From a virus: DNA of 64,000 nucleotides. Made by a program: the position numbers and the translations under genes. Below, piece by piece: positions 14,535-48,576 of this stretch. The stretch is taken from positions 47,145 to 111,144 of IMG/VR virus record IMGVR_UViG_3300042889_001061; one strand, written 5' to 3'. The stretch's first letter is position 1, and every line of letters starts with the position of its first letter. The notes beneath the pieces are model-generated. The model saw nothing but the letters and a program-made list of their open reading frames with translations, made no database searches and was not told where the DNA came from.

Positions 14535-15659
14535 ATGAAAACAGCAGACAATGTAAAAAAGACAATTTTATTTTATCAGCCAGATAGATATACTCGGCAT
14601 GCAGATAGCATCGTGGCAGATGCATATCTCGAAGAACACATTCTTTGTAATTTTTTAATTGCACTTACCTGGGATGATTTTGTCAGTAAATTAAACTTAA
14701 ACCCTGACTTAGTGGGTTTTCACTGTGATTTATTTGACAACGAAGAATTAAGTATTCATCAATTAATAAAAGCAATAGAAATAACTCTCAAGCTAAAAAA
14801 TAACCAAGCAGATATTTTTGTAAAAGTTAATAAAAAAACTTGTCGAGAAACTATTGATATGTTGAGAAACACAAACATCATAGGTCTGCAATTTGATCGG
14901 GGAGACTTTGGTTTAGAATATGCCACAGAATCCTTTCGAAAATTACTAACAGATAGACATCATTGGCCTGAAGAAGTTATTGCTACATCGTTAGAACATC
15001 AAGAAAATAAACGACCTTTGCACGTTTATTTTAGAGATGATATGGAGGTATATTATGACCCAGTAAGATTTGTAGAAGTAACAAAAGATATTAATGCTAG
15101 ATTTCTAATGTGTAAAAGTTTGAATGAGTTAAGTATAGCATTATCCGAGCGTCCTAAGAATCTTGTATTTCATATAGACATGGTTAGACGGCATGGCGGA
15201 ACAATATCAGAGTTTATGATGATGTTAGAAACTATGACGAAATACACTAATACAAAAATTAAACCTAACATCGGTGTTGGTATAGAAGCAGATACACATT
15301 TATCGACAATTAAAGAATTACAAAAACACAGAATACTGGCAATAGTACCAAGTGCAAAAACATTTGGCACAACTAGTACTCGCAGTGCCATAGAAGTAAT
15401 GCTGAATAATGAATCGCATTGGCCCAAAGACATTATCAGTACTCTTCCTGGCAATGAAAACAAAGTAAAAAATAAAAATAATAATGCCCTAACAATTAGA
15501 CAACAAGAAGTATTTGATCTAATTGCTAAACGAGGTCTAAGCAACAAGCAAATCGCCAGAGTGCTAAATATATCTGAGAGCACAGTTAAGATTCATGTCA
15601 GCGCAGTCATGAAGAACCTTTGTGTTAGAAATAGAACACAATTGGCCTTAACGAAATAA
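14535..15659 (+). CDS. LuxR/NarL-family HTH regulator with two degenerate receiver-like domains
   Basis: LTIRQQEVFDLIAKRGLSNKQIARVLNISESTVKIHVSAVMKNL; internal duplication, each unit ending HWP...ENK. Confidence 0.88.
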   Translation: MKTADNVKKTILFYQPDRYTRHADSIVADAYLEEHILCNFLIALTWDDFVSKLNLNPDLVGFHCDLFDNEELSIHQLIKAIEITLKLKNNQADIFVKVNKKTCRETIDMLRNTNIIGLQFDRGDFGLEYATESFRKLLTDRHHWPEEVIATSLEHQENKRPLHVYFRDDMEVYYDPVRFVEVTKDINARFLMCKSLNELSIALSERPKNLVFHIDMVRRHGGTISEFMMMLETMTKYTNTKIKPNIGVGIEADTHLSTIKELQKHRILAIVPSAKTFGTTSTRSAIEVMLNNESHWPKDIISTLPGNENKVKNKNNNALTIRQQEVFDLIAKRGLSNKQIARVLNISESTVKIHVSAVMKNLCVRNRTQLALTK

Positions 15660-15847
15660 TTAACAGCGTATATATCCGTATCCAAAACATCTTCTAATAC
15701 TGAAGCCAATCTAATACTAAGTCATAGCACAACTTAGTATATTTCCTTTTAAGTAATTTAGTAGCAAGCTAGAAATAGATTTTTAGTTTGCACAAACACT
15801 AGGGCGTAATAACAGTCCTAGTATTATTTACTTTAAGGAAAAATAAT

Positions 15848-16402
15848 ATGGCTGACATGTTAACAACAGATCCCTTCTTCGCACTTACAAATCAAGTAGC
15901 TGGCGTAAGAGAGAAAGTTTCCGATAGCATTTTCGAAAACTACAAACTACAAGTTGCTCAAACCAACGACATCAACAACCGTGCTATGCAAGTTGCATTA
16001 CACGATGCTACTGAACTATCTACTATCAAGCAAGAAATTGCTAATGGCACGCTTCAGACTATGTTGGCTGCTAGTCGTACAGACGCACAGATCGGTGCCA
16101 CAAGTGCTGCTCAACAACGTTTGATCATGGAACAAGCAGAAGCTACACGTCGTTTAATCGTCGACTTGAACACACAAAACTTGAACACAGCGTTGATCAA
16201 CACAAACACAGCATTGACTGGTTTGGGTGTATCATACGGTGGTTTAGGTCTTGCATATGGTGGCGCAGTGAGTGCTTACCAAAGTGCTAACTCTACATCA
16301 GCAATCAATGCATTGAACAGCGCAATCGCTAGTCAAGGTATGGTTACTGTAGGTGCTGGCGCAGTAGGCGGTACACAAACTGCTACACCAACAAGCGTTT
16401 AA
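15848..16402 (+). CDS. Ala/Gln/Thr-rich helical protein, probably structural
   Basis: AAGGAA RBS; coiled-coil character; C-terminal GAGAVGGTQTATPTSV. Confidence 0.7.
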   Translation: MADMLTTDPFFALTNQVAGVREKVSDSIFENYKLQVAQTNDINNRAMQVALHDATELSTIKQEIANGTLQTMLAASRTDAQIGATSAAQQRLIMEQAEATRRLIVDLNTQNLNTALINTNTALTGLGVSYGGLGLAYGGAVSAYQSANSTSAINALNSAIASQGMVTVGAGAVGGTQTATPTSV

Positions 16403-16421
16403 TCGCTAAAGGAGGCCTACT

Positions 16422-16607
16422 ATGTATCCATACTTAGGCGGATATGGTAGAGGCTTGGGGGGATTCCCTCGAGGCTATCTAGGAGCTGGCATAGGATATC
16501 CCTATCAAGGCTTCTGGGGCTACCCAGGTTGTGGTTGGGGCTACCCAGGTTATGGCATTGGCTGCTACGGCGGTTATGGCTATGGTTATGGCGGCGGCTT
16601 ACTATAA
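16422..16607 (+). CDS. Gly/Tyr-rich low-complexity protein
   Basis: AGGAGG RBS; GYG/GYPG repeats. Confidence 0.75.
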   Translation: MYPYLGGYGRGLGGFPRGYLGAGIGYPYQGFWGYPGCGWGYPGYGIGCYGGYGYGYGGGLL

Positions 16608-16624
16608 TCTAAAATAGTAAAGTA

Positions 16625-16657
16625 AGTAGGTTGGCTCATAAGGCTGACCTACTTTTT
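16625..16657 (+). terminator. Intra-operon terminator/stabilising hairpin
   Basis: AGTAGGTTGGC-loop-GCTGACCTACT-TTTT. Confidence 0.7.
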
Positions 16658-16673
16658 AATAAAGGAGATTGTT

Positions 16674-16883
16674 ATGTACGGTTATTTGTACCCATTTTAT
16701 AGAAGTCCATATATTGGAGGTTACGGAGGTTACGGCTATGGCTATCCATACAACTATGGTGGCTATTACAACAATAATGTTAGTAATGTTATAGGTAGCG
16801 CAGTTGCTAACCAATCAATGAATACTATTGGCGCCGGAGCCATAGGTGGCATTCAAGTTGCTACACCTACTGTAATTTGGTAA
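16674..16883 (+). CDS. Gly/Tyr-rich protein sharing the C-terminal motif of 15848..16402
   Basis: AAGGAG RBS; ends GAGAIGGIQVATPTVIW. Confidence 0.75.
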   Translation: MYGYLYPFYRSPYIGGYGGYGYGYPYNYGGYYNNNVSNVIGSAVANQSMNTIGAGAIGGIQVATPTVIW

Positions 16884-16895
16884 AAGGAATTTAAG

Positions 16896-17636
16896 ATGTA
16901 TATCAGAAGCACTACACCAAAGCCAACTCCATTACCAGAAAAAGAAAAGTTGTGGATTACAGTTGACCCAGATCAACCCAATGGTGATTGTGAACCTCTG
17001 CCGCCCGTTGAATTAAAAAATAAAATAGGCGCAACCGATCCATTACCAAGTGTAGTAATAAATGAAGCTACTATGACATTTAGAATGAATAGTAGAACAT
17101 TATGGACAAAATACGCATTAGGTCTAGTTAATTTTGCTGTCAGTGATGTTGCCGACTTACCCACAACAGACAGTGTAGAACAACGTATGTATAAATCATC
17201 TACACTGATAGGTGATTTCTTTGTTCCTTATTATGGTATTCGTGCAGGCAGTGATATTGCAAAATTGCTAACTGAGATATTTAAAAATGGTGTTGATGTA
17301 GTTGCCGCAGTTAAAAAACAACAAGACACGGTTCCATATCAAATTAAATGGGCAGAACAAACAAAAGAACTTGCTGAATTGTTTAATAAATTAAACCCAA
17401 GTCAATACCCAACTTCATTATTACAAGAAATGTTAGATGCTTTAACTAAGTTATGGTTAGATAACATCATTGCTAGATATACTAACAATATTATTCTTAA
17501 TGCTGAAAGTATAGATGGCATTAACAAATTAGTTATCACTGGTATTGCTAATCACGTTAACAAAGGTTATCAGAGTTTAGCAGATGTGTTAAGTCGTGGA
17601 GTTATTGCTCAATATCCATTATCATTTTTGGAATAA
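16896..17636 (+). CDS. Helical-bundle protein, paralog of 21284..21976
   Basis: RTLW...FFVPYYG...LFNKLNP...LSRGVIAQYP; resembles, from memory, a Firmicutes family often labelled 'acetylglutamate kinase', but no kinase motifs are visible. Confidence 0.6.
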   Translation: MYIRSTTPKPTPLPEKEKLWITVDPDQPNGDCEPLPPVELKNKIGATDPLPSVVINEATMTFRMNSRTLWTKYALGLVNFAVSDVADLPTTDSVEQRMYKSSTLIGDFFVPYYGIRAGSDIAKLLTEIFKNGVDVVAAVKKQQDTVPYQIKWAEQTKELAELFNKLNPSQYPTSLLQEMLDALTKLWLDNIIARYTNNIILNAESIDGINKLVITGIANHVNKGYQSLADVLSRGVIAQYPLSFLE

Positions 17637-17639
17637 GAA

Positions 17640-17879
17640 ATGGCGATAATAAACGTTCAGTCTAACAAGAATATTGAGTTTTTAGACTTAGAAGTTCACG
17701 CTGTCATGTGTGAACAACGACGTCTTGCACTAGAAGAAAAAATTAATTCAGTTGCACTTCGTATCAACGATTATGAACAGCAACAACTAGCAAACAAAAG
17801 ATTAATGCTAGGTGCAATAGTTTCTATTGCTACGGGCATTATCACAACAATAGTGTCTTTAGTAGGGAGGAATTTTTAA
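17640..17879 (+). CDS. Coiled-coil plus C-terminal TM protein (XhlA/holin-like architecture)
   Basis: CEQRRLALEEKINSV then a hydrophobic helix. Confidence 0.55.
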   Translation: MAIINVQSNKNIEFLDLEVHAVMCEQRRLALEEKINSVALRINDYEQQQLANKRLMLGAIVSIATGIITTIVSLVGRNF

Positions 17880-17880
17880 A

Positions 17881-18498
17881 ATGAATCAACTTGAAATAAA
17901 CAGACAACGAGCACAATTATTAACAACAGCAAGAAATATGCTCAATGAAGAATATCAACGACAACGCAGTGAGCAATATACTAAGTGGCAAAGCGAATCA
18001 AATCACCTATGGATATCAAAAGGTATAATGTTGCCATATCCTAGTTCTTTTGGTTATCCCACTGAAGAAGAAGTTGTTGCAAAAGCATTAGAATTATATA
18101 ACACACAAAATAATAAACCAGTATCAAACACTGGTGTCGAATTACCTAAAACAGATGAATCAATGACTTCATCTGTGACAGCAAAACTAATGGAAGTTAG
18201 TCACAATGTTCGACCGGTTGTAATGCCAGAAGTACCTGATGTAACACCTTGGGAACAATACTTGGTGCCTGAACCAATTAAACAACCAGTACCGATTGTA
18301 GAAGAACCTGTAATAGAAGATGTTGTTGCCAAGGAACCCGAACTAATCGTAGAAGAGGAAGTAGCAGAACCTGAACTAACAGAAGAACAAATAGAAGAAG
18401 TAAAAAGTAATTCTAGATTAAGAGGGTTACTGGCACAATTTATTACCATGGCTAAAGGGCTTGATGCCAAAGCCCAAAAAGATGAAGGAACAAAATAA
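17881..18498 (+). CDS. Paralog of 23658..23918 with an acidic Pro/Glu-rich extension
   Basis: [12 protein letters not shown]...[14 protein letters not shown] vs RLELLKMSKEML...FPTEEEIIKKAKVL. Confidence 0.65.
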
Positions 18499-18998
18499 TG
18501 TTTAATAATTTATTATTCAATAGAAGACCATTAAGAAGAGTTATTCGTCGTCCAGTATATAGACGTCCTATAATTAATCAGTATGGCGGCAATGGCAGTG
18601 ATATATTTTATAACAGCGGTGGAGGAGTTGGACCACCAGGGCCACCAGGGCCACCAGGGCCACCAGGACCACCAGGGCCACCAGGGCCACCAGGGCCTCC
18701 GGGCACACCAGGATTAGTGCCAGTAACCGTAGTAAACACAAGTCCTTATATTGCTTTACCCACTGATTATGATCTTGCTGTTACTGCTAACGCAGTTATA
18801 CCTGCCAGCATAGTGTTACCAGCAAGTCCTGTTGGAACTGTTTTTATTGTAAAAGACGCCGCAGGAGTGGCAAATATAAATTCAATCACAGTATCTGCCA
18901 TAGCATCGACTATTGACGGAGCAGCCAGTGCTGTTATCGATGCTCCATATGGTAGTTTACAATTTATATTCAACGGCATAGAATGGAACATAGTATAA
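18498..18998 (+). CDS. Collagen-like protein, (GPP)8 plus beta-rich C-terminal domain
   Basis: Arg-rich N-terminus, GPP repeats, C-domain LPA..G.VFIVKD..G.A....ITV....IDGA. Confidence 0.85.
18630..18701 (+). repeat. 9-bp tandem repeat encoding Gly-Pro-Pro x8
   Basis: GG(A/G)CCACCA units, last unit GGGCCTCCG. Confidence 0.9.
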
Positions 18999-19549
18999 TG
19001 GCATACAAAGCACCACTTGCTTCAACAACCGATTTTGGAATTATGAAAGTCGGCACCGGTTTATCAGTTACTGATGGAACCGTTAACGCATCAACCGGCT
19101 TACTCAATTATGGATTTTTTGAAAACGGAACACAAACTAATCCAGTGGCCAGTGCAATTAATTTAGCATCATTTAGTATAACTGGTCCAGCAAATGGAAT
19201 TAGTATAGTTGGTGGTACTCAACTTACAGTAGTCAACGCTGGAACATACAACACGGTGTTTACAATGAATGTAAACAAAACATCCGGTGGCGCCAGCACT
19301 ATTAGCATATGGCTACGTCTAAATGGAGCAGACATTGCAGGCTCAGCACAAGATTTAATTTTAACAGGAGCATTGGATACAATCTTCGTTACAGGCAATT
19401 ATACATTGGATATACCTGCAGGAGGCAATATAGAAATATGCTGGAGTAGTGCTGACACTACCATGCAGTTATTGGCATTGCCAGCAAGAGTTGGTCCAGT
19501 GCGTCCAAGCGGCGCCAGTGTAAAAGTTACACTAACAAGAATTAGTTAA
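18998..19549 (+). CDS. BclA C-terminal/C1q-like beta-sandwich protein
   Basis: GISIVGGTQLTVVNAGTYNTVF...IWLRLNGADIAGS...ASVKVTLTRIS. Confidence 0.65.
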   Translation: MAYKAPLASTTDFGIMKVGTGLSVTDGTVNASTGLLNYGFFENGTQTNPVASAINLASFSITGPANGISIVGGTQLTVVNAGTYNTVFTMNVNKTSGGASTISIWLRLNGADIAGSAQDLILTGALDTIFVTGNYTLDIPAGGNIEICWSSADTTMQLLALPARVGPVRPSGASVKVTLTRIS

Positions 19550-19558
19550 GGAAATAAT

Positions 19559-19918
19559 ATGTCTGCAAATTTAAACACAAAAATAGTTACAACAACACCT
19601 TACACCGTGTTATCATCAGATGAAGTAATTTTTATGAATGTCCTTGGACCATCGTCTGTTATATTGCCAGCCAATGGCCTGGCCACAGGTGAAGATTGTT
19701 GCGGCGATGATGATGACGACTACAACGGCAAAAAAAAGCCAGTGCTAAAGCGTTCATATTACATCAAAGATATTTCAGGTAACTCGGCAGCGAACCCAGT
19801 TACTATTACATCAGCAGGATCCAAGTCCATTGACAGCAATCCATTTGCAATCATCAATGGCGGATATGGTCATATACAGGTAGTGTATGACGGTACAAAC
19901 TGGAAGATTATAGGATAA
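19559..19918 (+). CDS. Stand-alone paralog of the collagen protein C-terminal domain
   Basis: TTPYTV...LPA...IKDISG...NPVTIT...ID...YG.IQVVYDGTNW. Confidence 0.7.
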   Translation: MSANLNTKIVTTTPYTVLSSDEVIFMNVLGPSSVILPANGLATGEDCCGDDDDDYNGKKKPVLKRSYYIKDISGNSAANPVTITSAGSKSIDSNPFAIINGGYGHIQVVYDGTNWKIIG

Positions 19919-19958
19919 TCATTCCAATTAAAATTAGTTAATATAAAGGAAAACTAAA

Positions 19959-20363
19959 ATGTCATATACAAATAACCCAACGTCGATACTTGCCGGAGCA
20001 GGTATTACAGTATCACCAACAACAGGTACAGGTGCAAATACAATTACTCTTAGTGCCAGTGGTATTAATCCTGTGGCAGTTAGAGTTGCAGTTGCAACTC
20101 CAGTCGTGGCCAGTGCAACCACAGATGAAGTAATCAGCGTACAAGTTCCTGGTCCAGTTGCTGTGGCAGTTACATTGCCAGCAGGTGTTGCCGGTAAAGT
20201 ATTCACAATCAAAGACGGACTAGGATTGGCTGCACCAGCAACACCTATTACTATTACACCAACAGTCCCTGACACAGTAGATGGCGCCGCCACTGCTACA
20301 ATTGATGCACCATTTGGTTCATTGACATTGGTCTTTGATGGCGCACAGTGGATACTAGTATAA
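19959..20363 (+). CDS. Third paralog of the same beta-rich domain
   Basis: TLPAGVAGKVFTIKDGLG...ITIT..VDGA...FGSLTLVFDGAQW. Confidence 0.7.
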   Translation: MSYTNNPTSILAGAGITVSPTTGTGANTITLSASGINPVAVRVAVATPVVASATTDEVISVQVPGPVAVAVTLPAGVAGKVFTIKDGLGLAAPATPITITPTVPDTVDGAATATIDAPFGSLTLVFDGAQWILV

Positions 20364-20364
20364 T

Positions 20365-20643
20365 ATGTACAAAAGAATCACTCATACGATTGTCGAGGAA
20401 CATTTCGACCATCCTGAGGCAGTAGCAATGGCAGCCGAATCTAAATCTAAAGGTAAAGCCCCATTGCGCTATTATGCTGACGGCCAACAGATAGCATCTG
20501 ATTTACCGCAGTCTTATCAATTAGCAGTAGGAGAAAATCGCTGTGGCAATTGTCTAGCATTTGACCCAACTAGAAACGTTTGTAAGCAATGGATGTTACC
20601 TGTGCGAGCAGACTATGTTTGTGCCGCATGGACAGTAATTTAA
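20365..20643 (+). CDS. HiPIP-like four-Cys protein with shared N-terminal tag
   Basis: YQ...CGNCLAF...C..W...V...YVCAAW. Confidence 0.6.
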   Translation: MYKRITHTIVEEHFDHPEAVAMAAESKSKGKAPLRYYADGQQIASDLPQSYQLAVGENRCGNCLAFDPTRNVCKQWMLPVRADYVCAAWTVI

Positions 20644-20655
20644 AAGGATAATAAA

Positions 20656-21273
20656 ATGGGAATTATAAGAAGACCTGAGCCACTTAAAGTCAAACTAGAA
20701 GATGTAGATACTCCTGTGGAAAACGAAGTAGTATGTATAGTCGAAGAAAGCGATGATGGTAACATTATTGAAATAATATGTGTACCAGAAGAATTTCTCG
20801 AAAAAGTCAAACCAGTAGAAGAAGTTCGAGCAGAATTTAAACCCAAGGCTGTGGTAACTTCTACTGCCACTGGGGAACAGTTCGGAACTTGGATTCCCGT
20901 TTTGCGTAGTACAGGCACAATTGATGTTAACATTAGAAATGCTTTTTATACAAAAGTTGGACAGTTAGTAACCTGTACATTTGATATAATAGTTACTAAC
21001 ATGTCTGAACGAAATAATTCTTCTATAACGCTGAATGGACTGCCAATTAACAGTATAAATTCTCAGGGAATAGCAGGATCTGCTCATTTATCTTATTTTA
21101 AAACGCCAACCAATGAATTAACTCATATAAGTGGCACAATAAACGGCAACGATACTAGAATAGATTTGTGGTGTGAACGACATGGTCGCAAAGGACTATT
21201 ACCGTTAACTCAACAGGATATTCAAATCAACACAGTTCTAGCAGGAACTGTAACTTATATTACAAATTCTTAA
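20656..21273 (+). CDS. Fibre-tip-like beta domain protein with acidic N-terminus
   Basis: GTWIP...YTKVGQLVTCTF...LNGLP pattern seen in tail-fibre C-termini. Confidence 0.5.
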   Translation: MGIIRRPEPLKVKLEDVDTPVENEVVCIVEESDDGNIIEIICVPEEFLEKVKPVEEVRAEFKPKAVVTSTATGEQFGTWIPVLRSTGTIDVNIRNAFYTKVGQLVTCTFDIIVTNMSERNNSSITLNGLPINSINSQGIAGSAHLSYFKTPTNELTHISGTINGNDTRIDLWCERHGRKGLLPLTQQDIQINTVLAGTVTYITNS

Positions 21274-21283
21274 GGAGAATATT

Positions 21284-21976
21284 ATGTACAAAAAAATTAC
21301 GCACAACATAGTCGAAGAGCACTTTGACCATCCCGTAGCCAGTCAGATTAAGAAATCTATGACTAGATCTAAAATTCCTAATAATGAAGTTTTTTCAGAA
21401 ATCAAATTTAGATCAGATATAAACTCATATTTCGAAAACTATAAATCACGAATTAATTCTATGATCAACAGTGCAACTGGCACTGAAGAAGATTTAATTA
21501 AACCATTTGAAGAAATATTCAACAACTCTTGGGTTGATGGTCTTGGCAACATGACCAAGCCCATATACTTCAGCGAATTAGGTGAAAGAATTAATTCTGC
21601 TTTTAGAAGTTTTCCTGTGACTTTATTAATAATGATACAACTCTTAAAAACTGGAAGAGATATAACTGCGTCAACTCGTAGATTTGTAGGTGCCAGGGAT
21701 GACTTGTCAATAGCATTAAATAATTTTAATCCGGCTTGGCAAAATACAGCAATAAGCTCGTTGTTTACGACCATTACAACTGAAATGATAAATCAAGTTA
21801 AAGCTCGATTGAAAAAAGATTCCAATGCTGAATTACAATCTGCACAACAAATTGCTCAAGCATTCGAAACATTTGAAAATGCATTTGTAAATGGAATAAT
21901 CAGTCAACATCCAGAAAGATTTTCTATATCAACTCCTGTGATTGCTCCAACTTCTTATAATAGAGATATAATGTAG
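21284..21976 (+). CDS. Helical-bundle protein with shared N-terminal tag, paralog of 16896..17636
   Basis: MYKKITHNIVEEHFDHP; LNNFNPAW; FVNGIISQHPERF. Confidence 0.65.
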   Translation: MYKKITHNIVEEHFDHPVASQIKKSMTRSKIPNNEVFSEIKFRSDINSYFENYKSRINSMINSATGTEEDLIKPFEEIFNNSWVDGLGNMTKPIYFSELGERINSAFRSFPVTLLIMIQLLKTGRDITASTRRFVGARDDLSIALNNFNPAWQNTAISSLFTTITTEMINQVKARLKKDSNAELQSAQQIAQAFETFENAFVNGIISQHPERFSISTPVIAPTSYNRDIM

Positions 21977-21984
21977 ATTATAAA

Positions 21985-22731
21985 ATGTATGCCAAAGATT
22001 TTAGAGTAAGAGCTGACCCCGCAGACCGGCGAGATCGTTATTATAATTTTGCCAGAATAGAACAGCCCAGGAACTATGTCGATCTTCGACCCTGGGCTAG
22101 TCCTGTGGAAGATCAATTACATCTAGGAAGTTGTGTTGGACAAGCAGTTGTAGGCGCCTATGAATTATTATTAAACAAGTCGGATAGAACCAAGTTTACG
22201 GACCTAAGTAGATTATTTGTGTATTACAATGCACGTTTGTTGGATAATTCAATAGACGAAGACGTGGGTGCTTATGTTCGAGATGGAATTAAAGCTGTAA
22301 ACAAATACGGAGTTTGCAGTGAACAGTCGTGGCCATACTTAATAAAACGATTTACAGATGCTCCTAGTGTTCAAAGCTACGAAGATGCTCGTCGTAGATT
22401 GATAAAAAAATATTATAGAATAGAAAGTATAAAAGATATAGTCGATGCACTAAACGCAGACTGCCCTGTGGTCACTAGTTTTAATGTCTATAACAGCTTT
22501 GATGATTTAGAATATTCAGGCAATCACGTATTGCCAATGCCACAAGCCAGCGAAAACTTAATTGGTGGTCATGCTGTTACTTTTGTAGGCTATGATTTAT
22601 CAAAGAAATTGTTTTTAGCAAGAAATAGTTTCGGTACAGATTGGGGTATGGACGGATACTTTTGGGTACCCTTTGACTATGCAGAAAAAGACTTTATGGA
22701 TAGCTGGGTATTTGACATCGAACTAATTTAG
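21985..22731 (+). CDS. Papain-like C1 cysteine peptidase
   Basis: VDLR...DQLHLGSC, LSRLFVYYNAR, GGHAV, RNSFGTDWGMDGYF. Confidence 0.93.
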   Translation: MYAKDFRVRADPADRRDRYYNFARIEQPRNYVDLRPWASPVEDQLHLGSCVGQAVVGAYELLLNKSDRTKFTDLSRLFVYYNARLLDNSIDEDVGAYVRDGIKAVNKYGVCSEQSWPYLIKRFTDAPSVQSYEDARRRLIKKYYRIESIKDIVDALNADCPVVTSFNVYNSFDDLEYSGNHVLPMPQASENLIGGHAVTFVGYDLSKKLFLARNSFGTDWGMDGYFWVPFDYAEKDFMDSWVFDIELI

Positions 22732-27226: not shown

Positions 27227-27651
27227 CAGACGAAACACAACATTATTACATCACTCCCCCTACTTTATTTTTACCTCCTGCGGGTCTTAGAGTATCATTA
27301 ATCGGTGTCGACGAAGATTGGATTGACAATATGAGTGACGAACTAGAGGATACTTTACCCAGTATTCCTATGACGTTTTATCATTTGGATACCAAAACAT
27401 CAGATCAATGGCAATGGCAATATCATATGATGGAACAAAGCAATCTTATTGTGGTCAATGTTGCACGTAGCTTGTCCATTGATTTATTGTTATCCTTTTT
27501 ACATATGGGCGACAACAAAATTTGGTTCTTTGTTGACCCAGAAGAAGTAGACAAAAACATTATGATATTATTAAATACTATTAATGCAAATGTGTTTTCT
27601 AGTTCGGATGAATTTCATAGTATGTTAACAGCGTTTATTGGTAATGCCTAA
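27223..27651 (+). CDS. Hypothetical protein
   Basis: Overlaps both neighbours. Confidence 0.65.
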   Translation: MTDETQHYYITPPTLFLPPAGLRVSLIGVDEDWIDNMSDELEDTLPSIPMTFYHLDTKTSDQWQWQYHMMEQSNLIVVNVARSLSIDLLLSFLHMGDNKIWFFVDPEEVDKNIMILLNTINANVFSSSDEFHSMLTAFIGNA

Positions 27652-28876
27652 TCAACCATTGATGAAATGCAGTTTCTGTGAAAAATCGCAGAACGAAGTA
27701 AAAAAACTTGTTGCAGGTGCAACTGGTTACATCTGCGATGAATGTATTGTATTGTGCAATGAAGTCATCAAAGATGATTTAATCAAATCGTCGTCTAAAG
27801 ACAATAAACTTCCCACTCCTCGAGAAATATTTGATCATCTTGATCAGTATGTTATTGGACAGGATCTTCCCAAATTAACTATGAGTGTGGCAGTGTACAA
27901 TCACTACAAGCGATTGTTTAACAAAAGCGATGTAGAGATTGAAAAGAGCAATGTATTATTAATTGGTCCAACTGGCAGTGGTAAAACATTATTGGCTAAA
28001 AGTATTGCTAGATTCCTGGATGTGCCTTTTGCTATCACAGATGCTACAAGTTTAACAGAAGCAGGCTATGTTGGTGAAGATGTTGAAAACGTTATTCATA
28101 AATTATATCAGGCGGCAGATCAAAACATCGAACGCTGTGAACAGGGCATTATCTATATTGACGAAATAGATAAAAAAGGACGCAAGAGTGAAGGTACTAG
28201 TATTACTCGTGATGTATCGGGCGAAGGCGTACAGCAAGCATTGTTAAAGATCATCGAAGGCACAGAATGTCGTGTACCAAGTGGAGGCGGCCGTAAACAT
28301 CCCGGTGGCGAAACATTAACTATTAACACTAAGAATATTTTGTTTATTCTAGGTGGAGCATTTGTAGGTCTAGAAGAAATTATTAACAAACGGGTAAATA
28401 CAAAATCTACCATGGGCTTTGTAGGAAGTCCTGTTAAAGAAAAAACATCGTTGGCGGGTGTTACATCCAGTGATGTTATCAAATGGGGTATGATTCCTGA
28501 GCTTGTGGGACGTATGCCACAGATTGCTGTATTAGAAGAACTCACAGAAGAACAACTTGTACGAGCAATGACCGAACCGAAGAACAGCTTGGTCAGTCAA
28601 TATCAAAGTCTATTCAAAATGGACAATGTCGAATTGACCATAGACGATCGAGCGGCATTGGCCATTGCAGTCAAATGCACTGAAATGAAATTAGGAGCAC
28701 GTGGTTTACGTGCAGAGCTAGAAAGTATACTGCTTAAAACGCAGTTTGTATTACCTGACTTGGCAGCAGAGAATGTCACGAAAGTTACAATTACAGAGGA
28801 AACAGTAACACATGGTAAAGAACCACTATTAATATATGGCAAACGAAAGACAAAACGAGAACAGAATTCTCAGTAA
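27644..28876 (+). CDS. clpX: ATP-dependent Clp protease ATPase subunit ClpX
   Basis: CSFC...CDEC zinc finger, GPTGSGKT, YIDEIDK, RDVSGEGVQQALLK. Confidence 0.97.
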   Translation: MPNQPLMKCSFCEKSQNEVKKLVAGATGYICDECIVLCNEVIKDDLIKSSSKDNKLPTPREIFDHLDQYVIGQDLPKLTMSVAVYNHYKRLFNKSDVEIEKSNVLLIGPTGSGKTLLAKSIARFLDVPFAITDATSLTEAGYVGEDVENVIHKLYQAADQNIERCEQGIIYIDEIDKKGRKSEGTSITRDVSGEGVQQALLKIIEGTECRVPSGGGRKHPGGETLTINTKNILFILGGAFVGLEEIINKRVNTKSTMGFVGSPVKEKTSLAGVTSSDVIKWGMIPELVGRMPQIAVLEELTEEQLVRAMTEPKNSLVSQYQSLFKMDNVELTIDDRAALAIAVKCTEMKLGARGLRAELESILLKTQFVLPDLAAENVTKVTITEETVTHGKEPLLIYGKRKTKREQNSQ

Positions 28877-45846: not shown

Positions 45847-48576
45847 ATGATTACCAGCACAGAATACAGTATGTTCACAGATCAAGGCAATCTTGCCGTT
45901 GCGGCCTTGGTCAACTATGCCCGAGTGGCAGGCCTTACTTGGCCCGAAACTTGTCGTTGTTTGGAATCTCTGTCCAGAAATGATGCTTACGGAGAAGCCA
46001 TGGATACAGCGGTACGAGAATGTGTCTATAGTGCTCTTGGATTTGAGTCAAATTTTTATTGCTAAATTGACTGAAATTGGTTTTGGTGTTATAATTAATA
46101 CTTAGCAACAAGGAGATGGTATGAAAGAAATCAAAATTAAAGTATTCGGTGATTCAGGTCATGCGTGGGCCCGCTTCCCAAAAGCTCGCTTGGTCAAACT
46201 TGGCATCGCTGATAAGATCACTCCCTACAGTTATCAAAATGGTGTGAATGCCTTTTTGGAAGAAGACTGTGACTTGTCAACACTAATTAACACTTTGCAG
46301 GCCAAAGGCTTTAAGGTCAAGTTCGAAGAAAGTTTTACCAATAAGTCCAGCAAGATTCGCGGCTATTGCAGTTACCAGGCTTAATTGACTGAAATTGGTT
46401 TTTGGTGTTATAATACATTATCGCAACAAGGAGTAGACATGAAACTTACTACAGCAATTTCGGTTTTAGAAAAAGATGCTAAATTTTTAGGTATGAGCTT
46501 TCTCAGCTATATCAAATTTGTCAGAGACAACCCTTTGGCTCAAACTCAAAAAACTATGGAAGCCTATCGTGTGTTTACCGCAGAGGCTACGGCGTTCTTT
46601 GCTTAAGGATTGATGATGAAACGAATTTTAGCAGTGGTATTGGTTAGCACATTGTTTACTGGTTGTGCTCAACTACAAGATGGTGCCCGCAGATATATGA
46701 CATCTCCTGCAGAATTGGCAGTAGAAGATTGTAATAAAATGGGGTTCAAATCAGGAACTCAGTCATTTCAGAATTGCGTACTGACGACTAGTCAAAGTAT
46801 CAGAAACGCAAGAGCACAACAAGCCGCGGCTTCCGAAGCCGCACGGATTTCAGCTGAAAGATCACGTCCTAGATCTATTAATTGTACTAGGACTGGTTCA
46901 TATGTTAATTGCACAGAGTTTTAAGTTGTAAAAATACCCAATAATTGACATAAATTGGTTTTGGTTGTATAATACTTACATAGCGAAACAAAACAAGGAG
47001 TTGGCAATGGGCTATCGTGTTATGAATTCTGTGGACAATATGCGTGAAAAGTATGGAGCCCGTGCGGGCTTGGAAGGTCCTTTCAACTACGATGGTCGCG
47101 TTCTTTACTACGATCCAAAAGAAGGCGCCTACTACGATCCAACCACAGACTTCTATGTGGAGAATGATGAGTTGGCCATCATCATGAAAATGTCTAACGT
47201 CTAAGGAGAAGAGATGATTGATACAACTCAAGAATACACCGTAGAGCACAACGGCCGCTCATTCACATTCAAGCATGGCGATCCATTTGATCGCGGCATG
47301 TCAGACAGCTACTATGGTCGCATCCGTGGACCACACAAAGGCGGCGTTGGCGGCAACAGCGGCCTTCGCAACACGAACCTCTCTCTGCAAGAGATCGCAG
47401 ACTACGGTGCTGGCTATAACTATAACGAAGCTTCTGGCGACAAGAAAGAATATTGACACAAATTGGGTTTGGCGTTATAATATATACATACAGCAACAAA
47501 AAGGACTTGAAAATGACAGCATTTACATCTTGGGAAGAAATGACAGAGTTAGAGCAGGCCCAGACTACATTCTGGGATATGTACAAGGATGCTCATGGTT
47601 TCCGTCCACGCCACGTTGACACTTCTACCTGGACACTCGCGCAGTTCGAGCAAGAGTTTGTTGAGTTGTCAGAAGTGATGAAAGCCAACGATATCCAACA
47701 AGGTATCCAAGAAGCGATTGCCACTGAGAATTTTGAACGACGTGTTGCAGAGTTGTTGAGCATGGGTGCTAAAGACTATGCCATGGCTTTACGTTGGATC
47801 CACGAAGCTGAAGAGACTAATGGCGACGACAGCTACCTTGCTTGGACACTGGGCTTGCCCTATCGTTACTTTGCTAAACAAACCCAAACAGTTTAATAGG
47901 AGACACTATGTCTAATAAATTACTAGTTCGCTTCCAACGTCAAGTTGAATCGCAGAATGCCACACTGGCCAAGTTCAAGTTGGCCCTGGACAAAGATCCG
48001 GCTCACGCTCTTACTTGGGGCTTGGATGCTTTCCGCAGTGCCGCAACTCTTAAAGTTCTGAATCAAATCGTTGGTTCATTGGAAGCAGGCCACGCAGACA
48101 TGGAGAACATCAAAGCCACATTGATGGATCGTGTTTTGCATCGTAGCAAGTACCCTGCACAAAGCACTAGTCCAACCAGCAACCTCATGGAACAATATGA
48201 GTTGTCGGCCTGCGCTGAAATCCTGTCAGATTTGCAGTACATAGATTAATTGACTGAAATTGGTTTTGGTGTTATAATATATACATACAGAAACAAAAAG
48301 GACTTGAAAATGCGTAAACAACAAATCGTCAGTGGAATGAATAACAGCCAAAAGATCCGTTTTATTGTCAACGGTTTTGGTATGTATTGCAAGGTCTCTG
48401 ACATTGAAAACTTTGCTACCAGCCCACATCGTGTTGCAGTTATTTCAGCATTACAGCATCTACAATGCGACCGTGATTTGCACAAGAGCACAGGCAGAAA
48501 AGACATGCCAACAGGCTTTGGAACTCGTAGTACATTCCAAGGTGTTGACATTGATGTTCAGGTAAACTTGGCATGA
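45847..48576 (+). other. Run of small promoter-cassette genes (45847, 46121, 46439, 46610 lipoprotein, 47007, 47214, 47513, 47908, 48310)
   Basis: Most have AGGA(G) RBS and follow a copy of the promoter repeat. Confidence 0.7.

Follow-up and report, generated by a model that had tools for sequence, protein, structure and literature searches.

That diverse cargo proteins can share one N-terminal address peptide is a known principle. In phage T4, capsid targeting needs no more than the first 10 residues of IPIII; IPII has the same propeptide as IPIII on a body that has diverged; and Gp21 removes the propeptide by cutting after L/I-x-E (PMC9026906, PMC3012670). Here we set beside that system a peptide from a 64,000-nucleotide stretch of viral DNA (the window; positions 47,145 to 111,144 of IMG/VR record IMGVR_UViG_3300042889_001061), in which a near-identical 17-residue sequence, hereafter the tag, opens two otherwise unrelated proteins, of 92 and 230 residues, encoded in one ~8-kb gene cassette. 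This peptide, its strictness, its set of partners and its cassette are undescribed.

By analogy, the capsid-targeting sequence (CTS) of T4, present on IPI, IPII, IPIII and Alt, appears to be the closest functional counterpart of the tag. Both are short peptides at the extreme N-terminus of otherwise unrelated, fast-diverging proteins of one phage; both contain an L/I-x-E site, at residues 8–10 in IPIII and 9–11 in the tag; and the carriers of the tag are likewise T4-related myoviruses, two cassette-bearing records having a gp21-type protease. The tag nevertheless has no sequence similarity to the CTS, is 17 rather than 10 residues long and is invariant also past the putative cut site; all tagged genes lie together in a single portable cassette, which also encodes a regulator of its own and fibre-like proteins; the tagged cargo is not basic; and the conservation is far stricter than that reported for CTS-like sequences.

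Two further systems invite comparison. Microcompartment and encapsulin peptides, like the tag, are short, are joined by a flexible linker to several unrelated cargo proteins and are portable between them; however, microcompartment peptides are amphipathic helices of loose sequence, whereas the tag is invariant and not significantly amphipathic, and encapsulin peptides are mostly C-terminal, whereas the tag is N-terminal. General scans of the cassette, none aimed at a shell gene, revealed no microcompartment or encapsulin shell gene. In the exosporium proteins BclA, BclB and BetA of Bacillus, a shared N-terminal motif attaches several proteins to a surface layer that also holds collagen-like and C1q-like proteins, and the cassette that encodes the tag likewise encodes collagen-like and C1q/BclA-like proteins; unlike the BclA-type motif, however, the tag sits on helical, Fe-S and protease proteins and not on the collagen-like or C1q-like ones, and to our knowledge it has no sequence relation to the BclA motif. 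An earlier note on this DNA had likened the peptide to encapsulin cargo peptides and to exosporium leaders: the first comparison founders on a tag that is not C-terminal, the second on its absence from the collagen-like proteins; nor is the tag a significantly amphipathic helix. The note did not name the T4 CTS.

Two unrelated proteins open with one peptide

Both open reading frames (ORFs) and both peptides lie where the earlier note had placed them (from 20365 and from 21284). The proteins open with MYK(R/K)ITH(T/N)IVEEHFDHP; copy A (MYKRITHTIVEEHFDHP) and copy B (MYKKITHNIVEEHFDHP) are identical at 15 of 17 residues, and 9 of these 15 are encoded by different codons, which bears out the synonymous DNA differences that had been noticed. 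In a BLASTP comparison of the 92-residue protein with the 230-residue protein (helB), the alignment is confined to residues 1–33 (19/33 identical, E 6e-11), and nothing aligns downstream of residue 33. A 17-column profile of the tag scores the two ORFs at 47.6 (20365) and 45.9 bits (21284), while the runner-up among all six-frame ORFs of the whole 111,144-bp record reaches only 4.4 bits; the record therefore contains exactly two copies of the tag, far beyond chance. The tag has neither a hydrophobic stretch of at least 10 residues nor an RR pair, and the absence of both rules out a Sec or Tat (twin-arginine translocation) signal peptide.

A conserved, rare tag found only at the N-terminus

Every full-length homolog of helB keeps the tag (n = 120, down to 23% identity), the sole exception among its homologs being a 144-residue form that is shorter at the N-terminus (P0050), and 70 of 72 homologs of the 92-residue protein keep it as well; both searches used shared 5-residue words, which favours sequences with the tag. 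When the profile was limited to the first 30 residues, it retrieved only 169 proteins at E ≤ 0.001 among 1.84 billion representatives. Among the 150 matches listed of these 169, the match starts at residue 1–2, except in four that start at residues 11–20, behind evidently over-extended ORF starts. Across 441 distinct tagged sequences, positions 1, 2, 7, 9, 11, 12 and 13 are at 100% and most others at 84–98%, and D15 is the majority residue (77%); these figures are partly circular, since the collecting pattern itself fixed several positions (I/V/L at 9, E/Q at 11).

A degenerate DNA pattern for the tag matched 12 IMG/VR loci and at least 120 metagenome stretches, and gave no match in 185,579 prokaryote species (one genome each). 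Neither helB nor the Ala/Gln-rich protein of the cassette has a homolog in 50,697 cultured-phage records, where the only matches are distant C1q-like ones in freshwater phages. The carriers of the tag are all uncultured and include contigs of 231–367 kb, among them Ga0315903_10000010; the peptide was not found in the searchable literature.

Selection acts on the peptide rather than on the DNA

We compared 18 DNA copies of the tag. At the protein level 16 of 17 amino acids are fixed, position 8 alone being free (T, N, H, G or D); at the DNA level two or more synonymous codons are used at 15 of the 17 codons, and the DNA upstream of the tag is unrelated between the copies. The helical bodies meanwhile have diverged to 23–30% identity while the tag persists, a strictness (16/17 fixed, bodies below 25%) that is unusual for a short linear motif. 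This pattern shows purifying selection on the peptide and not on the DNA. Because synonymous sites are scrambled, 9 of 15 codons differ within the window and upstream DNA is unrelated, a recent duplication, a gene conversion and a DNA or RNA element are excluded as origins of the likeness.

For a sample independent of the tag we took 41 loci found through the Ala/Gln-rich protein encoded nearby. Of their 57 helical-family ORFs, 41 carry the canonical core, about 10 have visibly decayed tags (e.g. MYTVTHTITKEQYVNG or MVYKVTTTQYFQEDP) and 5 have no tag at all; 3 of the 10 HiPIP-like (high-potential iron-sulfur protein-like) ORFs are tagged. These counts show that the tag has a history separate from that of the bodies, having been acquired, retained, degraded and lost independently of them, as does the helical paralog of helB in the window (helA, 16896), because this untagged protein has tagged orthologs elsewhere: the canonical tag is present at L006, L010, L011 and L004, and a decayed one at other loci, of which MYTVTHTITKEQYVNG is an example. 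The statement that this paralog lacks the tag thus holds for the present genome, where it begins MYIRSTT, and not for its orthologs. Six cassette ORFs (16422, 16674, 16896, 20365, 21284 and 21985) have a Met-Tyr start in common, and the Met-Tyr of 16896 (MYIRS...) and 21985 (MYAKDF...) may be the last vestige of a lost tag.

The tag is portable among unrelated partners

When the bodies of 182 tagged ORFs were classified with tag-free hidden Markov models (HMMs), 139 proved helical, 32 HiPIP-like and 11 of other kinds, one of them a fusion of the tag to Peptidase_C1. Altogether the tag occurs on at least five unrelated partner types, including His-rich repeat peptides (L010 8130-, P0256, P0230), a Thr-rich 55-residue peptide (L044, L064), small proteins with GN(V/I) repeats and a C-terminal beta-type domain (P0282, P0306, P0318) and a HiPIP-like domain with a C-terminal extension (P0297). 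The enzyme among them is a papain-family protease (L135:982-1788:-; Pfam Peptidase_C1, E 1.1e-14) that is 46% identical to the untagged protease of the window at 21985. Papain-family enzymes normally have an inhibitory propeptide N-terminal to the enzyme domain; in the tagged protease the canonical tag and a linker of ~35 residues occupy this site. The earlier proposal of a portable peptide therefore stands, the tag being conserved in essentially all close homologs of both proteins and spread, by motif profile and list of fusion partners, well beyond the one pair.

Several features of the linkers and C-termini accompany the tag. A sub-clade of helB, about 80 of 351 long family members, has a conserved (K/R/N)DIM C-terminus (21956-21976 in the window), and mini-proteins of 51–67 residues consist only of the N-terminal tag, a linker and a DKDIM end (P0262, P0277, P0196, L100 1039-); the latter look as if the helical body had been deleted. 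Several tagged proteins have repeated GN(V/I) or NGNGYT motifs, or else His-rich repeats, in their linkers (P0282, P0306, P0318, P0271, P0230, L172 13824+), which could be modification or binding sites.

The tag is predicted to lie outside either fold

The AlphaFold2 model of helB, built on 90 homologs, has a mean predicted local distance difference test (pLDDT) score of 88: residues 1–30 score 55–57 and the bundle (39–208) above 94, and residues 1–16 have no secondary structure. The model of the 92-residue protein is alike, with pLDDT ~50 for residues 1–30, above 90 for the body and no helix in residues 1–16. From ORF start to folded domain there are mostly ~30–60 residues, and up to ~92; the models leave the tag and a linker of 15–60 residues disordered ahead of bodies folded with confidence. 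The low scores of residues 1–30 and the variable start of the domain thus suggest that the tag is a peptide on a flexible tether, belonging to neither fold. Treated as a helix, the tag has a hydrophobic moment (μH) of 0.29, which 22% of shuffles attain; an amphipathic-helix encapsulation peptide (~18 residues) was rejected on this value and on the lack of a helix at residues 1–16 in both models.

The body of the 92-residue protein, which had been described as a four-Cys domain, does have four invariant cysteines (C60, C63, C73 and C86 in 69 homologs) and can be refined to a HiPIP-like fold: it matches 13 solved HiPIP structures along its whole length (Z 4.8–5.7, root-mean-square deviation 2.3–3.4 Å, 50–55 residues), and the C-x2-C...C...C spacing agrees. 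Unlike HiPIP, it has shorter inter-Cys loops, has the tag in place of the usual Tat signal of bacterial HiPIPs and is not a member of the family at the sequence level, as it has no Pfam family at E ≤ 0.1 in a scan that includes the HiPIP model, and its HiPIP-like profile finds no PDB chain at E ≤ 10. For a phage, a HiPIP-like putative [4Fe-4S] protein that lacks this Tat signal is by itself an uncommon auxiliary gene.

The helical body has only sub-threshold Pfam matches, and no convincing relative in the PDB by Foldseek (E ≥ 0.12); in a wide search with VIA-align it scored highest against designed bundles and rhodopsins (Z 9.1), as is generic for helical bundles. The helical bodies conserve no catalytic-type residues and no His, Cys, Glu or Asp.

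The tagged genes belong to a portable cassette

The ~8-kb cassette (Table 1) is syntenic across related loci by tblastn, in the order LuxR-family regulator, Ala/Gln-rich protein, Gly/Tyr-rich peptides, helA, small transmembrane protein, acidic protein, collagen-like protein, C1q/BclA-like protein, beta-domain paralogs, HiPIP-like protein, a further ORF, helB and C1 protease. Genes flanking the cassette differ between records (window 14535-22731 versus L136-L176), so the cassette appears to behave as a portable unit, or mobile module. In five records of 103–139 kb the tags occur inside the cassette only.

Table 1. Features of the cassette and of its surroundings (coordinates in the window)
Feature	Position	Strand	Evidence or remark
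LuxR/GerE-family regulator, head of cassette	14535..15659	+	Pfam GerE, E 8e-16; syntenic in related loci
Ala/Gln-rich 184-aa (amino acid) protein, most conserved cassette component, candidate scaffold or receptor	15848..16402	+	
Two Gly/Tyr-rich mini-proteins (16422-16607, 16674-16883)	16422..16883	+	
helA, 246-aa helical paralog, untagged here	16896..17636	+	tblastn; body-only HMM
Untagged proteins: small transmembrane, acidic, (GPP)n collagen-like, C1q/BclA-like, two beta-domain paralogs	17640..20363	+	
Tag copy A, 17 codons	20365..20415	+	tag profile, 47.6 bits
Tagged 92-aa protein: tag, disordered linker (residues 1–30), HiPIP-like four-Cys domain (~38–92)	20365..20643	+	AlphaFold2; structure matches
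205-aa untagged ORF between the tagged genes	20656..21273	+	conserved in 4/12 loci
Tag copy B, 17 codons	21284..21334	+	tag profile, 45.9 bits
helB, tagged 230-aa protein: tag, disordered linker, seven-helix bundle (39–208), C-terminal ...RDIM tail	21284..21976	+	AlphaFold2
Papain-family (Peptidase_C1) cysteine protease, last cassette gene	21985..22731	+	Pfam, E 2e-15; syntenic in 9/12 loci
ClpX-like ATPase	27638-28876		

helA and helB form one helical superfamily, and the collagen-like (18498) and C1q-like (18983) ORFs have N-termini other than the tag. The Ala/Gln-rich protein is 62–94% identical across loci where helB is ~22–33% (under 35%) identical, and its matches in the ESM Atlas are unnamed hypothetical viral clusters only. 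Its C-terminal ~31 residues (16310-16402) are shared with the second Gly/Tyr-rich protein (16674; 16785-16883), with 18 identities (E 2e-10) and the form ...GAGA(V/I)GG.Q.ATPT...; related C-terminal motifs occur on Tyr-rich peptides of the distant cassettes L165, L172 and L175.

Cassette composition varies. Tags are found without a C1 protease within 10 kb at L141/L170, L163 and L172, and the minimal cassette L147, made up of LuxR, the Ala/Gln-rich protein and the C1 protease alone, has no tag; as their co-occurrence is not strict, we rejected the protease as an obligatory partner of the tag. The distant cassettes L174-L176, in which the Ala/Gln-rich protein is ~40% identical, have no tag, helB, HiPIP-like gene or protease. 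Two tandem copies of the Ala/Gln-rich gene are present at L165 and L174-L176.

The record is a linear IMG/VR virus with a CheckV completeness of 32%. It encodes tail sheath, tube and fibre proteins, a gp32-like single-stranded DNA-binding protein, UvsX, a DnaB-primase and a ribonucleotide reductase, as well as a ClpX-like ATPase, an S8 subtilase and several radical-SAM proteins. Its tail sheath is 44–46% identical to those of the jumbo phages PA5oct, Atu_ph07 and Phosso. Of these, PA5oct falls among the T4-related jumbo phages and carries a gene for a prohead scaffold/protease (PMC7318152). With that placement, the sheath likeness indicates that the virus is a fragment of a T4-related jumbo myovirus.

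The head genes PF03420 and PF07068 are absent from this record and from three records of 74–80 kb, all of them fragments that are 19–32% complete. PF03420 (gp21-type protease) is above cut-off in two cassette-bearing records, where it is flanked by coiled-coil scaffold-like ORFs. The T4 late-promoter motif TATAAATA does not occur near the cassette and occurs twice in the window against 7.5 expected. Two side observations concern the genomes themselves: IMG/VR classes one cassette-bearing record (G008, the record of L139; 103,158 bp) as a provirus and the others as linear, and outside the window our virus encodes a 714-residue subtilase among replication genes (L014:7610-9754; Peptidase_S8, E 3e-37).

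Discussion

With about even confidence, we read the tag as a portable, flexibly tethered N-terminal docking or targeting propeptide of the kind known from T4 capsid targeting. We infer this role from its N-terminal position, its tether, its near-invariance (which extends to residues that are not potential metal ligands), its portability to partners that include an enzyme, and its confinement to the cassette; a tagged protease, moreover, suits co-targeting better than mere substrate recognition. Through the tag, cassette proteins, in a set that can change, would all bind the same conserved receptor, and the tagged proteins—fast-evolving helical paralogs, the HiPIP-like Fe-S protein, His- and Thr-rich peptides, beta-domain proteins and sometimes a papain-like protease—would thereby be co-recruited into a structure built by the phage during infection. 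The tag probably folds only on binding, and it may then be cut off, the candidate enzymes being a T4-type prohead protease and the C1 protease of the cassette: I9-x-E11 has the form of a T4-type prohead-protease site (L/I-x-E), and all 441 tagged sequences have I9 and E11, a count to be read with the fact that the selecting pattern itself required I/V/L at position 9 and E/Q at position 11.

It is possible, and we say so tentatively, that the receptor is encoded within the cassette, in an assembly of the Ala/Gln-rich, Gly/Tyr-rich, collagen-like and C1q-like proteins; that it is instead a T4-type prohead core is a doubtful proposition. We favour the cassette receptor over the prohead core because tags are found in the cassette only, the cargo is acidic to neutral and the scaffold-like proteins have diverged. 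The same observations count against the prohead version of a docking role: the median isoelectric point of the cargo is 5.6, whereas T4 internal proteins are basic, and the scaffold-like proteins beside gp21 are only 39.5% identical between the two cassette-bearing phages that have them; in one of these phages the tags are canonical, whereas the tag of the other is partly decayed.

Other points weigh against a docking role of either version. The receptor is putative; a helix formed by the tag would not be significantly amphipathic; the invariant H7, E11, E12 and H13 could equally be metal ligands; and the searches relied on word indexes and on patterns that contain the tag, so that part of the apparent invariance is selection bias. 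The most conserved motif of the Ala/Gln-rich protein, moreover, is kept in distant cassettes that have no tag, and its conservation is therefore not explained by the tag.

We consider it unlikely that the tag is the leader by which a processing or modifying enzyme, such as the papain-like protease of the cassette or a radical-SAM protein of the phage, recognises its substrates; such an enzyme would act on the linker or body and then remove the leader, in the manner of ribosomally synthesized and post-translationally modified peptides (RiPPs) or bacteriocins. Such a leader would account for the C1 protease that closes the cassette in most loci, for the several radical-SAM genes of the record and for those tagged products that are short and repetitive (His-, Thr- or GN(V/I)-rich) and resemble precursor cores; papain-type proteases prefer hydrophobic residues at P2, which V10 and F14 would fit. 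RiPP and bacteriocin leaders, however, belong to short precursors with the enzyme always adjacent, whereas 139 of the 182 tagged ORFs encode folded helical proteins of ~200–270 residues and only a minority are short repetitive peptides; the protease is not always present where tags are, is present in the tag-less L147 and can itself be tagged; and the radical-SAM genes are not syntenic with the cassette.

A metal site intrinsic to the tag, made up of H7, E11, E12, H13, D15 and H16 and binding Zn, Ni, Fe or Cu, would dispense with a common receptor, each protein needing the metal for its own function, such as delivery to the Fe-S protein or sequestration. Three His and two Glu are invariant, D15 is at 77%, and the partners include a putative [4Fe-4S] protein and His-rich repeat peptides; yet the non-ligand residues Y2, K3, I5, T6, I9 and F14 are equally invariant, which a simple metal site would not need, nor would it need a strict N-terminal position and a disordered linker. 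As the helical bodies lack conserved His, Cys, Glu and Asp and several lineages of these proteins do without the tag, we regard such a site as quite unlikely.

Still more improbable is a degron or regulatory handle, read by an unfoldase or protease or by the LuxR regulator of the cassette, that would time the abundance of the tagged proteins or feed back on their expression. N-terminal recognition signals for ClpX exist, a ClpX-like ATPase is encoded 6 kb downstream, and the cassette has its own regulator. The ClpX-like gene, however, lies within 10 kb of the cassette in only 1 of 41 loci (L142), and being non-syntenic it was rejected as a linked partner; degrons are usually loose motifs rather than 16 invariant residues of 17; and nothing ties the LuxR protein to peptide sensing.

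That the tag has no function of its own, being left over from a recent local copying of the 5′ end of a gene by duplication or gene conversion, or being a DNA or RNA element such as a translation-initiation region, might be thought of for two genes that lie 0.9 kb apart in one operon, given that A-rich codons following ATG can favour translation initiation, but it is effectively refuted by the codon data, with differing codons in the window, scrambled synonymous sites and unrelated upstream DNA across the 18 copies, and by the persistence of the peptide on bodies diverged below 25% identity.

Returning to the tag as a docking or targeting propeptide, a more ambitious and for now speculative extension is that jumbo phages have in this cassette, from LuxR to protease, a self-contained "build-and-load" system that moves horizontally. 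Redox, protease and fast-evolving helical cargo would be loaded, by way of a universal 17-residue N-terminal tag, into a proteinaceous structure formed by the Ala/Gln-rich, Gly/Tyr-rich, collagen-like and C1q-like proteins. If so, it would be a phage cargo-loading system unrelated in sequence to capsid cores, microcompartments and encapsulins.

If the tag is an address label, it would amount to a new code for protein sorting, used by a large, uncultured group of freshwater and aquatic jumbo phages. It would show which genes of these phages are "cargo", among them those for an Fe-S redox protein, for a protease and for a helical family that evolves rapidly and may sit at the interface of conflict with the host. 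It would also open an 8-kb cassette that is wholly uncharacterised to direct experiment. If its 17 residues suffice for loading, the tag could moreover be put to use in engineering, as a part and targeting handle, as the T4 CTS has been.

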